Positions 17,449-56,309 of a stretch of 64,000 nucleotides of DNA are shown here, piece by piece (the stretch's first letter is position 1; every line of letters begins with the position of its first letter). The translations under genes were made by a program, and so were the position numbers. This DNA comes from an uncultured Acidobacteriaceae bacterium. Its GTDB lineage: Bacteria > Acidobacteriota > Terriglobia > Terriglobales > Acidobacteriaceae. The notes below the pieces were generated by a model that ran no database searches, had not been told where the DNA came from, and saw only the letters and a program-made list of their open reading frames with translations. The stretch is from assembly GCA_963762465.1 (NCBI GenBank), contig CAVXKS010000011.1, positions 370,356 through 434,355 on the forward strand, in the 5' to 3' direction.

Positions 17449-18135
17449 GTGCTCCCCGGCCGGCTCCAATGTGCCCTGATCATTGCGGTTGTCGCGTTCG
17501 TGTGTGCTACGGCGCATGCGTTTGATCGCGTGACGCTGCGGAACGGTTTCAGCTACGACTGCAATCACCGGGAGCCGCTCGCCGATGGACGCGTGAGGTT
17601 GTTTCTGAGCAGCGGGGTGGATGCGAGCTATATCGATCTGCCCGCCGCGGAGATTGAATCCGTGGCGACGCTGCCGGACGAGCCTCCTGTTGTGGCGCCT
17701 AAGACGACAGTCCCTTCCAACGCTGACATGCGAAGTCTTTTGAGCGACGCGGGCGCGCAGCATGATATCGATGTGGAACTGCTGGCGAGCGTCGTGCATG
17801 CGGAGAGCGATGGACGGGCCAATGCTGTCTCGCGAACCGGAGCACAGGGCCTGATGCAGCTCATGCCGGGCACGGCTCACAATCTCGGCGTCAAAGATAG
17901 ATTTGAGCCCGCGCAGAACATCAATGGCGGCACGGCGTACCTGGACGAACTGCTGACGCGCTACCACGACAATCTGGCGCTGGCACTAGCTGCGTACAAC
18001 GCTGGACCAGCGGCGGTTGATAAGTATCACGGGATTCCGCCGTATCGCGAGACGCGGGCGTATGTAGCGCGCGTCATGAATGAATTCAAGCGGCGCAAGC
18101 TCGCGGCAGAACGCGCGGCGATTGCCAGCAGGTAA
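17449..18135 (+). CDS. lytic transglycosylase (SLT domain)
   Basis: VVHAES, AVSRTGAQGLMQLMP, LAAYNAGP, PYRETRAYV. Confidence 0.92.
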   Translation: MLPGRLQCALIIAVVAFVCATAHAFDRVTLRNGFSYDCNHREPLADGRVRLFLSSGVDASYIDLPAAEIESVATLPDEPPVVAPKTTVPSNADMRSLLSDAGAQHDIDVELLASVVHAESDGRANAVSRTGAQGLMQLMPGTAHNLGVKDRFEPAQNINGGTAYLDELLTRYHDNLALALAAYNAGPAAVDKYHGIPPYRETRAYVARVMNEFKRRKLAAERAAIASR

Positions 18136-18168
18136 ATACCTTTCCGAACAAGCAGGAGCCCAGGGCTG

Positions 18169-19206
18169 ATGAGCAAGTCTGCCAGAAATGCTGTGATCGC
18201 TGTTGTGCTCCTTGCCATTATCGCGGGCTGCACATGGTTCGCGCGCGGGCGTGTGCACTTCGATTTTGCAAACCTGAAGGTGCAATTACGGGCAGTCTCA
18301 TGGGCGCGCGTCGCTGCGGGTGTCGCGTTGATCTGGCTTTCGGTCGCGATCCGCGCGCCGCGCTGGCACGTGCTGCTCGGCTCCGCGAACACAACCGGCG
18401 CGGCCAAACTCGTCGGCCCACAGTTTGTCGGCTTCACGGTAGTTGCGCTGTTCGGAAGAGCGGCCGACCTCGCGCGACCGTACCTGACTGCACGGCGCAC
18501 GGGAACACCGATCGCCACGCAGTTGGCGGTGTACTTCATCGAGCGGGCGCTTGATCTCGGATCCGCGGCAATTCTCTTCGCCATCACGCTTGCTCTGGCA
18601 CCAAAAAACATGCCTCACCATGAAGAGTTCAAGAAGGCCGGCCAGGGTGCTCTCGTTCTGATGGCAGCCATCGTGGTATTCCTGCTAGCTGTTCGTTTCG
18701 CGGGAGGCGCAGTCGCCGGGTTCGCCAGCAAAACGGTGGGAGTGGGCTCGAAGAAGCTGGCGGAATCAGTTGCCGTTAAGATTCTCGAATTTCGCGAAGG
18801 GCTGCGCACGATCAAGACGTTCGGACAGTTTGGCGCGGCACTCGTGCTCTCCCTGCTCATTTGGGCAATGATCGCCGGATCGTACTTCGAAACGACCCGG
18901 GCATTCCGTGACTCTGCGCAGCTGGCGTTCTTCTCTGTACCGCAAACGATGCTTTTGTTGGCGTCCAGCATGGCGGGGTCGCTGATCCAGTTGCCGGTGA
19001 TTGGGTGGTTCTCGCAGATCGGCGTGTTGACAGGGGCGTATATCGCGTTCTTCTCCGTACCGTTCGAAATCGCGTCAGCCGCGGGCGCGATTCTGATGGC
19101 GGTGACGACGCTCGGAATCGTGCCTGCGGGGCTGATTGCAGCGCGCATTGAAGGCGTGAGCCTGCGTGATGCGGCGCGCAGCAGCGAAGCTGTTGGCACG
19201 GCTTGA
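18169..19206 (+). CDS. lysylphosphatidylglycerol synthase TM-domain / flippase-like membrane protein (UPF0104)
   Basis: Multi-TM; RAPRWHVLL, LFGRAADLARPY, IERALD pattern. Confidence 0.75.
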   Translation: MSKSARNAVIAVVLLAIIAGCTWFARGRVHFDFANLKVQLRAVSWARVAAGVALIWLSVAIRAPRWHVLLGSANTTGAAKLVGPQFVGFTVVALFGRAADLARPYLTARRTGTPIATQLAVYFIERALDLGSAAILFAITLALAPKNMPHHEEFKKAGQGALVLMAAIVVFLLAVRFAGGAVAGFASKTVGVGSKKLAESVAVKILEFREGLRTIKTFGQFGAALVLSLLIWAMIAGSYFETTRAFRDSAQLAFFSVPQTMLLLASSMAGSLIQLPVIGWFSQIGVLTGAYIAFFSVPFEIASAAGAILMAVTTLGIVPAGLIAARIEGVSLRDAARSSEAVGTA

Positions 19207-39476: not shown

Positions 39477-39555
39477 AAAAGGGCCGCCCGGCAACAGGGC
39501 GACCCTTTCTCTATGGGAGGCAGCTCCAACGGAGGCAAAGCCATCGGAACGCTCT
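39477..39555 (-). ncRNA. candidate sRNA (about 80 nt) with two GCCUCC anti-SD motifs
   Basis: TTGACA-17-TACTCT promoter (39562-39590), no ORF, GC hairpin AAAGGGUCGCCC/GGGCGGCCCUUUU terminator. Confidence 0.6.
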
Positions 39556-39561
39556 GGTGCA

Positions 39562-39590
39562 AGAGTATGTTCGCCCCCGGGTGGTGTCAA
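39562..39590 (-). promoter_or_regulatory. near-consensus sigma70 promoter
   Basis: TTGACA at 39585-39590, 17-nt spacer, TACTCT at 39562-39567. Confidence 0.7.
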
Positions 39591-39710
39591 GACTCAATTC
39601 CCATAAATCGTAAGCTACTGCATGCAAAGGACTTACCGGAAATTATGTGACTTTTCGGTGTTTTCCCCTGTGATCCGTGCGGAAAGCCTTCTGGAATCCC
39701 GTTACTTCGG

Positions 39711-55156: not shown

Positions 55157-55341
55157 GCGATGAATCTCCTCAACCGAACTTCGCGACGAAGTATACGTGT
55201 GGTTTGGATGCGCTGGCCCTCGGGCGCGGTGCGCGAGTGAACGCGAGCAGCGGCGATGTGAGCGCAAGTTGAAGACCGTCAGAGCGGCTGTGAGGCTGTG
55301 CAAAGCAGGTCAGAAATTCCTTCCAAATTTTCTTTTTTCTC

Positions 55342-55370
55342 TTGACTCTAACGCGCAAGAAATCTATACC
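55342..55370 (+). promoter_or_regulatory. sigma70-like promoter with AT-rich upstream element
   Basis: TTGACT-17nt-TATACC preceded by AAATTTTCTTTTTTCTC. Confidence 0.55.
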
Positions 55371-55376
55371 TTCGTT

Positions 55377-55502
55377 AGCTGCATTGCAGCGTCGATGATG
55401 TTCATCGATTGGGAGCGCAGGCAAACGCAACCAAGGCAAAGCATCAAACCAAGGCAACACACTCGGGGGACGCCAATAGAGAGCGTCCCCCGAGGTGTTT
55501 TT
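55377..55502 (+). ncRNA. candidate sRNA (about 126 nt) with three AGGCAA motifs
   Basis: Promoter upstream; hairpins GCUGC/GCAGC and UCGAUGA/UCAUCGA; AACCAAGGCAA twice; 12-bp perfect terminator stem plus U-tract. Confidence 0.6.
55456..55502 (+). terminator. intrinsic terminator
   Basis: CTCGGGGGACGC/GCGTCCCCCGAG stem, extended by AACAC/GTGTT, followed by TTTTT. Confidence 0.8.
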
Positions 55503-55568
55503 CGGCCTGTATTCATGCGCCTTTCGCGTGCCCTCACAGATCTTCGCTTCGCAGTATCCTGAGAGGCG

Positions 55569-56309
55569 ATGACACGCCGCCGCTGGATCGCCGACAAGTT
55601 TACCGACACAACCGCATCCCTCACCGGAGATCAGGCGCTGCACCTTGCGCGCGTTCTGCGAGCCACGCCGGGACAAATTTTCGACGTGGTGGCGAACGGA
55701 TTCCTTCGCCGTGCCACCGTCGTCAATGTCTCCGAGCAGGAGGTGACGTTCGCGCTGGGGGAGGAATTGGAGACCGAAGCAGCACTTCCGGTGCACTTGC
55801 TGCTTGCAGTGATTAAGTTCGATCACTATGAGTGGGGACTCGAGAAACTGACAGAGCTTGGCGCCGCAAGAATTACGCCTGTGATTGCGCGACGCACGGA
55901 GAAGCATCTCGCGCAGGCTGCCGGGAAACGTGTCGAACGTTGGCGCAGGATTGGGCTGGAGGCAGCAAAGCAATCGCGCCGCAGCGACCTTCCGCAGATC
56001 GATGATCCGCTCCCGCTGAACCAGGCGCTTGCGCAGATCGCCGCGCAAACAAAGCTGCTGCTGGCCGAGACCGAGCAGGAGAATTCGCTGATATCAGCGG
56101 TAGGTCCGGGCTTCAGCCCGGACTCAGCGAGTCAGCGAATCAGCGAGTCAGGAATCGCGCTGGCAGTTGGGCCGGAAGGCGGATGGACCCCCGAGGAGAT
56201 GACGCTGTTCAGCGAGAAGGGATGGCGCCACGTAACTCTCGGACCGCGGATTCTGCGGGCGGAAACCGCCGCAATCGCCGCCCTCAGCATCTGCTCTGCA
56301 CTCCTCTAA
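55569..56309 (+). CDS. rsmE: 16S rRNA m3U1498 methyltransferase
   Basis: HLARVLR, EKLTELGA..I.P, EAAKQSRR, AVGPEGG, LGPRILRAETA. Contains a (TCAGCGAR)3 insertion at about 56124-56150. Confidence 0.93.
   Translation: MTRRRWIADKFTDTTASLTGDQALHLARVLRATPGQIFDVVANGFLRRATVVNVSEQEVTFALGEELETEAALPVHLLLAVIKFDHYEWGLEKLTELGAARITPVIARRTEKHLAQAAGKRVERWRRIGLEAAKQSRRSDLPQIDDPLPLNQALAQIAAQTKLLLAETEQENSLISAVGPGFSPDSASQRISESGIALAVGPEGGWTPEEMTLFSEKGWRHVTLGPRILRAETAAIAALSICSALL

Follow-up and report, generated by a model that had tools for sequence, protein, structure and literature searches.

A conserved non-coding RNA of Granulicella and its relatives as a derivative of a tiny peptide mRNA and a candidate mimic pairing with a family-wide small RNA

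What is the function of a short, self-contained transcription unit that lies directly upstream of rsmE, the gene for a 16S ribosomal RNA (rRNA) methyltransferase, in an uncultured member of the Acidobacteriaceae? The unit occupies positions 55342-55502 on the forward strand of the 64,000-nucleotide (nt) stretch of contig CAVXKS010000011.1 that was analysed here (hereafter the window), and inspection of the sequence revealed a promoter, an intrinsic terminator and three intervening GGCAA motifs. An initial annotation had described it as a stand-alone promoter-to-terminator unit with three AGGCAA motifs, one in the loop of GCG-CAGGCAAA-CGC and two recurring with an 18-nt period, and all of these elements lie where it had placed them (Table 1). 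It had further proposed that the RNA titrates a protein or another RNA, and here the two halves of the proposal fared differently: the partner that was found is an RNA with UUGCC loops, a small RNA (sRNA) which we call sRNA-2, whereas sequestration of a protein is unsupported. We favour, with a probability of roughly 0.6, the reading that the unit encodes a target mimic or decoy that lacks an open reading frame (ORF) and pairs with this family-wide, anti-Shine-Dalgarno sRNA.

Among 36 further genomes of the genus blastn recovered the unit from 26, and among 24 genomes of another family of the same order from none; its exact core is present in genomes of 62 species, mostly under Granulicella, Bryocella or Acidobacteriaceae records, with four under other labels. 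In one metagenome-assembled genome, CAWHBA01, the exact core is present on two contigs (L073 and L126), which might mean that the unit was duplicated or that the bin is mixed. The conserved block extends from the T-tract to GUGUUU, the remainder of the 410-nt intergenic region being unconserved. Across the 27 copies from the genus the T-tract and both promoter hexamers are invariant or nearly so, with a variable spacer, and the T-tract combined with a TTGACA-17-TATACA arrangement recurs in more than 60 homologues from other genera. Mean pairwise identity between species reaches 96% in the two core blocks, as against 64% in the linker between motif copies 2 and 3, 56-68% in the hairpins and 70% in the DNA of rsmE. 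Hence the core, compared with neighbouring sequence at 56-70% identity, is under selection. A simple consensus scanner had overlooked both the promoter, whose -10 element ends in C, and the terminator, with its 9-nt loop.

The secondary structure is maintained along with the core. In the alignment of the 27 sequences 97.4% of the cells of the proposed structure are paired and 13 pairs have changed on both sides, against 32-47% paired in a control with slid partners. By element, 1) hairpin 1 shows changes on both sides in 6 of 10 pairs and varies in length among species with its pairing retained; 2) hairpin 2 has 95.7% of its cells paired; 3) the terminator shows changes on both sides in 6 of 17 pairs, with 98.3% of cells paired; and 4) the GCG-CAGGCAAA-CGC hairpin is invariant in all 27 copies. 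The region of motif copy 2, AGGCAAAG, is invariant in the 62 species that possess the core, each of which also has at least three GGCAA copies and the third copy in the form GGCAACA. Between copies 2 and 3 the linker differs among species in sequence and in length (9-17 nt), and two species have gained a fourth GGCAA copy within it. The GGCAA repeats accordingly look like the selected units of this RNA and, as had been supposed, like docking sites for a partner. The terminator has a 12-base-pair (bp), GC-rich stem formed by CUCGGGGGACGC and GCGUCCCCCGAG (55462-55494) and is followed by GUGUUUUU up to 55502, the core between it and the hairpins is A/C-rich, and the fold energy of the whole RNA is -56.4 kcal/mol (z = -5.7 relative to shuffles). 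Hairpin 1 probably sits 1-3 nt from the 5' end. The unit is predicted to be independently transcribed into a non-coding RNA of about 125-130 nt.

As judged from the alignment, this RNA is non-coding throughout the genus: 1-nt indels inside the core (AACC-AAGG, AACC--AGG, AACCCAAGG) break every reading frame. Three candidate ORFs were rejected, namely the MMFIDWERRQ peptide, whose ATG lies in the non-conserved loop of hairpin 2, the frame beginning [A/U]UG-GGA-GCG, which is inconsistent between species, and a minus-strand ORF through the unit, which is interrupted by the same indels. That a tiny protein is nevertheless translated from the conserved [A/U]UG before GGGAG, or alternatively that the locus is a functionless, decaying pseudogene, we regard as hardly credible. 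The core does resemble a shrunken ORF (..ATKAK..), and each of the 27 copies has an in-frame UUG or AUG in front of it, but the frames diverge after about 8-13 residues and would yield products ranging from 12 to more than 200 residues among the species; decay, for its part, sits badly with the sharp excess of identity in the core over the sequence around it. The view of the initial annotation that this is a stand-alone RNA unit is upheld, and the covarying stems, the near-identical core and the broken frames mark it as conserved and non-coding.

The origin of the unit emerges from its homologues. A covariance model (R1), built from the alignment of the genus and run on 201 genomes of the family, recovered homologues in 58 of these, belonging to 44 genera. 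The homologues from other genera share the promoter, the hairpins, the GGGAG box and the terminator, are 175-200 nt long and carry, after GGGAGAAUAG-N(5-8)-AUG, an ORF for a peptide of 22-39 residues (MATKKAAKKAAKK...KKK). A second subfamily with the same architecture, which does not adjoin rsmE, encodes peptides of 12-17 residues (MATKKKAKK..KKH), and overall the ORF-bearing homologues (MATKKAAKK..., unannotated, Lys/Ala-rich, 12-39 residues) are found in at least 40 genera (loci L039-L066, L135-L154 and L159-L184, e.g. L039:1501-1697:-). Among the DNAs that encode identical peptides 90 of 91 differences fall on codon position 3, which implies that the peptide ORFs are real. None of ten peptides looked up in a collection of 15 billion proteins was present there, and three representatives matched no family in Pfam or NCBIfam. 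Outside the ORF-less genera, 26 of 29 genomes of the family contain the pattern GGGAGARTAG..ATGGCA; elsewhere in the phylum it is found in 6 of 367 genomes, which is chance level given 4 hits for a reversed-pattern control. A conserved, translated ORF, which the initial annotation had held up as the observation that would speak against an RNA gene, is accordingly a feature of the homologues in other genera, and in this genus the 1-nt indels abolish it.

When the two forms are aligned by eye, GGGAG-CGC-AGGCAA-ACG-CAACCAAGGCAAAGCA of the window corresponds to GGGAG-AAU-AGGCAA-AUG-GCAACCAAGAAGGCAGCA, and relative to the ORF-bearing locus L056 (GGGAGAAUAGGCAAAUGGCAACCAAG) the start codon AUG has become ACG, one G is deleted and the body of the ORF is gone. 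The loss spared the promoter, both 5' hairpins, the box that had served for ribosome binding, the GGCAA motifs and the terminator. A tree of RsmE groups all ORF-less and unit-less genomes in a single clade (97% support in the Shimodaira-Hasegawa-like approximate likelihood ratio test) nested among ORF-bearing lineages, and the ORF was lost once, in an ancestor that Granulicella/Bryocella shared with one sister genus. The comparative evidence traces the unit back to the mRNA that encoded a tiny, Lys/Ala-rich peptide. A search of the window's own genome for an ORF-bearing member of the peptide family found none. A separate locus on the reverse strand of contig C7 of genome G000 (about 18036-18860, outside the window) encodes a protein of about 240 residues, acidic and then Lys/Ala-rich, with a C-terminus of the form ..LATKKAAKKSGSKK...KKK*, followed by UAAGGCAACGCAACAGGCAAGC and a terminator and with GAGAGG-N7-UUG upstream; it has the look of another such peptide gene that was either joined in frame to a larger gene or stands immediately behind one.

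The partner, sRNA-2, is single-copy and present in 184 of the 201 genomes and in 135 of 142 genera of the family. Its 25 copies in the genus have a mean column identity of 95%, its terminator stem covaries around an invariant loop, and its fold energy is -39.7 kcal/mol (z = -3.7); a comparison with Rfam matched it to no family. It contains UUGCC three times, two of its loops carrying the motif, as well as two CCUCC anti-Shine-Dalgarno motifs. The predicted duplex between the two RNAs of the window is co-linear and spans about 26 bp, in which 1) UGGGAG(C)GCAG of the unit pairs with CUGCCUCCCA of the sRNA-2 linker over 10 bp with one bulged C; 2) CAAC pairs with GUUG; 3) AGGCAAAG pairs with CUUUGCCU; and 4) CAUC pairs with GAUG. 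The top of hairpin 1 of sRNA-2, GAUG-G-CUUUGCCU-CC-GUUG, thereby complements positions 55428-55445, and outside this duplex the terminator loop of sRNA-2, UGUUGCC, finds its complement in GGCAACA. The Smith-Waterman complementarity score is 25 against 13.8 +/- 2.5 for shuffled sequences, 4 of 2000 of which reached it. A 6-mer coverage score responded mainly to antisense strands of Lys/Ala-rich genes and was set aside unused.

Taken by themselves, the statistics on energy and alignment are modest; the case for pairing rests on evolution. In 31 of 35 genomes from other genera GGGAGAAUAG of the unit pairs at 10 of 10 positions with CUAUUCUCCC of sRNA-2. Departures from these sequences in one RNA are answered in the other or leave a wobble pair: 1) in G065 the box reads GGGAGAACAG and the linker CUGUUCUCCC (AACAG with CUGUU), and in G189 AACAA faces CUGUU; 2) in G163 GGGAGAGUAG faces CUACUUUCCC (GAGUAG with CUACUU); 3) G207 and G182 show U:G and G:U wobble intermediates in the box pairing, and the sister ORF-less genus has a G:U pair there; 4) in the genus of the window U:A has become C:G and A:U has become G:C with one bulged base, giving (C)GCAG with CUGC; and 5) beyond the box, in G021 UAAC in the unit faces GUUA in sRNA-2, a change from C:G to U:A. 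The loops behave in the same manner. Loop 1 of sRNA-2 reads CCUUGCCU in a clade whose unit has AGGCAAG as its terminator loop, and in other genera UUUGCUU is found with the motif AAGCAAA, UUUUGCC with GGCAAAA, CAUUGCC with a GGCAAUG terminator loop and AUUUGCC with GGCAAAUG; where the 3' untranslated region (3'UTR) is free of GGCAA, the motif is present in the terminator loop instead. In all, compensatory or wobble changes were recorded for g1, G065, G189, G207, G182, G163, G085, G193, G246, G021 and the AGGCAAG-loop clade. Across the genus the two RNAs occur together in 25 genomes and are both missing from 10; a single genome carries the unit alone, and no genome carries sRNA-2 alone. That the RNAs are complementary, that their loci co-evolve and that both are absent together is apparent from the genomes compared, and the pairing of the unit with sRNA-2 is on these grounds a well supported prediction.

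This covariation also bears on the idea that the unit is a protein sponge of the CsrB/RsmZ or CrcZ kind, GGCAA being bound by an RNA-binding protein and Hfq possibly assisting, which we consider very unlikely. In its favour, the unit repeats a short motif, placed in loops or single-stranded stretches and separated by variable linkers, and the genome encodes Hfq, KhpA and five cold-shock proteins. The motif variants, however, follow the loops of sRNA-2 base for base, as an RNA partner predicts and a protein partner does not. Moreover, there are just three motif copies, the only GGA in the unit lies inside GGGAG, tblastn with Escherichia coli CsrA at E <= 1e-3 found nothing in the genome (94% complete), and ProQ was likewise not found. 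The Rfam check that the initial annotation had recommended returned, with cmscan up to E = 10, chance matches only, for the unit and likewise for its homologues from other genera; its analogy to protein-sequestering sRNAs is not supported. The unit does share with CsrB/RsmZ and CrcZ the repeated short motifs, the variable linkers and the stand-alone promoter-to-terminator layout, and differs from them in that its motif is GGCAA rather than GGA or AAnAAnAA, in its low copy number, and in motifs that covary with an RNA.

In the ORF-bearing genera, where sRNA-2 is complementary to the ribosome-binding site of both peptide-gene subfamilies, it would block this site and contact GGCAA motifs at the start codon, in the 3'UTR and in the terminator loop, and so would repress synthesis of the peptide. 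On the way to the unit, as read by eye, AUG became ACG, one base was deleted and the ORF body was removed, and the RNA elements that were kept would serve sRNA-2 as docking sites: its linker would pair with the former ribosome-binding box and its two hairpin loops with the GGCAA motifs, the initial loop contacts spreading into hairpin 1. As no ORF is left to be controlled in Granulicella, the ORF-less RNA could work solely as an RNA and is most likely a decoy or target mimic, and if abundant it would titrate sRNA-2 and set its free level. Within this scheme it is supposed that sRNA-2 represses the peptide, that the unit controls sRNA-2 rather than the reverse, and that sRNA-2 has other targets. 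A more specific version of it is possible, and we put it forward only tentatively: the unit would be a competing endogenous RNA derived from a pseudogenised target, the ancestral state would be a module of a new kind, confined to the Acidobacteriaceae, in which a three-site antisense sRNA silences the mRNA of a tiny polycationic peptide, and the decoy would have been retained through the radiation of Granulicella, setting the free level of sRNA-2 and thereby the translation of a wider regulon.

Several observations weigh against the decoy interpretation. The ten genomes without both RNAs may represent just one or two loss events. G002, whose assembly is fragmented, carries the unit but lacks sRNA-2, and G032 has an intact unit with only a strongly diverged sRNA-2-like copy (L210 / L267; G032:C7:35189-35269; 30 bits, linker CUGCCGCCAG, loop UGUACUCC). 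Some genomes of the family with an ORF-bearing unit have no detectable sRNA-2; co-occurrence across the family, being imperfect or limited by detection, was excluded as evidence. GGGAG is an ordinary Shine-Dalgarno sequence, so that part of the conservation of the box in ORF-bearing genera is expected anyway. The RNAduplex energy of -39.6 kcal/mol is weak evidence when set against -34.3 +/- 4.1 for shuffles (z about -1.3), and the same complementarity score is attained in 221 of 185,340 windows of the genome (top 0.12%). The RNA itself, its ends and its abundance are predicted from the DNA. Finally, no other target of sRNA-2 has been identified and the decoy direction is presumed.

The same data have to be set against the view that the two RNAs are the closed remnant of a pair resembling a type I toxin-antitoxin system, in which sRNA-2 does nothing more than silence the mRNA of the Lys-rich peptide, with neither a wider regulon nor a decoy role, and in which the pair of Granulicella persists, for instance, through co-degradation or through regulation of the neighbourhood of sRNA-2 by the unit. 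This we consider unlikely, although the pairing of sRNA-2 with the ribosome-binding sites of both peptide-gene subfamilies fits it well, the lack of any further target is what it predicts, and the common absence of both RNAs from ten genomes looks as if neither had an independent role. Against this, once the ORF is lost there is nothing to silence, yet both RNAs remain near-invariant and co-evolving across more than 60 species, and the peptides are polycationic, unlike the hydrophobic toxins of known type I systems. Searches for antisense targets in the genome were negative within their scope: 12-mers complementary to the unit occur at the shuffled expectation, and words of the UUGCC type are not enriched near crude predictions of start codons. 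A 16-nt match in an ABC-F gene was discarded as an antisense target, being in sense orientation and reflecting the coding of ATKAK. Mimicry by the core of the site in 16S rRNA that RsmE targets (UCGUAACAAGGUAACC), an idea formed after the similarity had been seen, was dropped too: the best local match of the core to the organism's own 16S rRNA lies elsewhere and is no better than those of shuffles, and the 14-mer of the RsmE site ranks only 39th of 1492 against the 3'UTRs of the family.

The linkage to rsmE suggests yet another possibility, that the unit is a cis-acting 5' leader or attenuator of this gene, with read-through from the strong promoter tuned by the core, with or without sRNA-2. 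The gene follows the unit immediately and in the same orientation in 27 of 27 loci of the genus and in 26 of 28 from other genera, and in some loci it begins just 16-22 nt beyond the terminator hairpin; the gene upstream of the unit varies. Most Acidobacteriaceae still encode the peptide, as a rule immediately 5' of rsmE. Copy 3 of GGCAA overlaps the lower stem of the terminator, and the terminator tail, GUGUUUUU in the window, is just GUGUUUAA in some species, in which some read-through is possible. However, a CAGTAT(G/C)CT box precedes the ATG of rsmE in all 27 loci of the genus despite differing spacer sequences, with no conserved Shine-Dalgarno sequence, and is probably the gene's own -10 element on a leaderless or near-leaderless mRNA. 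Furthermore, neither single-sequence nor consensus folds contain an antiterminator or competing helix, the unit is absent from ten genomes of the genus, in six of which, when checked, rsmE abuts other upstream genes, and the second peptide-gene subfamily has the same architecture away from rsmE. We therefore judge a leader role to be rather improbable. Just 3' of the terminator most copies in the genus have a further conserved block, CC(A/T)GT(G/A)TTCATGCG(G/C)(G/C)TTTTCG (55505-55525, forward strand), which is too distant from the -10-like box of rsmE to serve as its -35. In genus g66 the ORF-bearing units (L056 and L066) are not followed by rsmE and have a different terminator tail (..CCCCCGUUUUGCG); nowhere else in the rsmE-linked subfamily is the linkage broken.

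If the unit is a decoy, its closest parallels are the sponges and target mimics of regulatory RNAs. In bacteria these include the chbBC intercistronic trap for ChiX, SroC for GcvB and 3'ETS-leuZ for RyhB/RybB; further analogues are IPS1, which mimics a target of miR399 in plants, and the pseudogene-derived competing RNAs of animals. Like them, the unit is non-coding, carries target-like sites that cover the functional region of the sRNA (the anti-Shine-Dalgarno linker and both loops), has pairing that is maintained in evolution, and has a strong promoter of its own from which it would be expressed. It differs in being an entire former target gene minus the ORF, kept as a dedicated RNA gene, and in a contact with its partner that has three parts, a linear box and two pairings of loop with motif, with titration in this case being the presumed outcome. 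Type I toxin-antitoxin systems with trans-encoded or multi-site antisense RNAs, such as TisB/IstR-1, ShoB/OhsC, ZorO/OrzO and RNA I/RNA II (Fst) of pAD1 par, are comparable to the ORF-bearing relatives, in which a very small ORF lies on a stable, structured mRNA and an antisense sRNA covers its ribosome-binding site; pAD1 par also has dispersed contact sites that include a terminator loop. In contrast to these systems, the peptides are polylysine/alanine rather than hydrophobic, and sRNA-2 is unlinked and single-copy. Antisense pairing with a translation-initiation region (GGGAGAAUAG with CUAUUCUCCC) is found in the relatives only; in the window the ORF, and hence any toxin, is absent, and the unit is not a member of this class. 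Dual-function sRNAs may also lose their ORF in some lineages, as illustrated by SgrS with or without SgrT. Here too a single RNA family exists with and without a small ORF, with RNA elements conserved in both, but SgrS is itself a base-pairing regulator of mRNAs, whereas the ORF-less unit looks like the former target of another sRNA.

Table 1. Coordinates in the window of the elements of the unit, of rsmE's upstream box and of sRNA-2.
Feature	Position	Strand	Remark
T-tract	55330-55339	+	upstream of -35
-35 TTGACT	55342-55347	+	17-nt spacer to -10
-10 TATACC	55365-55370	+	promoter span 55330..55370
5' hairpin 1 GCUGC-AUU-GCAGC	55378-55390	+	covarying stem
5' hairpin 2 UCGAUGA-UGU-UCAUCGA	55392-55408	+	stem kept, loop variable
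Former ribosome-binding box UGGGAG(C)GCAG	55410-55420	+	homologous to GGGAGAAUAG of ORF-bearing units
Small hairpin GCG-CAGGCAAA-CGC	55415-55428	+	loop presents GGCAA copy 1 (55420-55424)
ACG at AUG start-codon position of relatives	55425-55427	+	by-eye alignment
CAAC-CA-AGGCAAAGC-AUC with GGCAA copy 2 (55435-55439)	55428-55445	+	complementary to sRNA-2 hairpin 1
AACCAAGGCAA repeat, two copies	55429-55439 and 55447-55457	+	18-nt period
GGCAA copy 3 as GGCAACA (GGCAA from 55453)	55453-55459	+	complementary to sRNA-2 terminator loop UGUUGCC
Intrinsic terminator	55456-55502	+	55462-55473 pairs with 55483-55494 (main stem) and AACAC with GUGUU (lower extension); tail rich in U
CAGTAT(G/C)CT box	55552-55571	+	6-8 nt before rsmE ATG (55569); box also given as CAGTATGCT
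sRNA-2 promoter TTGACA / TACTCT	39593-39588 / 39567-39562	-	locus 39477-39593
sRNA-2 RNA	~39557 -> 39477	-	~80-85 nt, 16 kb from unit
sRNA-2 hairpin 1 loop CUUUGCCU	39540-39533	-	
sRNA-2 linker CUGCCUCCCA	39523-39514	-	single-stranded
sRNA-2 terminator stem	39505-39497 with 39489-39481	-	loop UGUUGCC 39496-39490

A full-text search of the literature found no sRNA work on Acidobacteriota and nothing on either of these RNAs. The locus thus leads to three linked and previously undescribed genes: a near-universal sRNA of about 85 nt, a family of polylysine peptides of 12-39 residues, and an ORF-less derivative of the mRNA of such a peptide. The peptide gene is tightly linked to that of a 16S rRNA methyltransferase. 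Experimental entry to the system is offered by the defined pairing sites, by the natural compensatory variants and by cultured carriers, namely Granulicella mallensis, G. paludicola (DSM 22464) and Bryocella elongata (DSM 22489). Loss of the ORF has often been proposed as a route to sponges and competing RNAs and has rarely been documented with compensatory evolution between unlinked loci; if the decoy reading is true, this RNA would be a clear natural case of a target mRNA that was turned into a regulatory RNA in this way.

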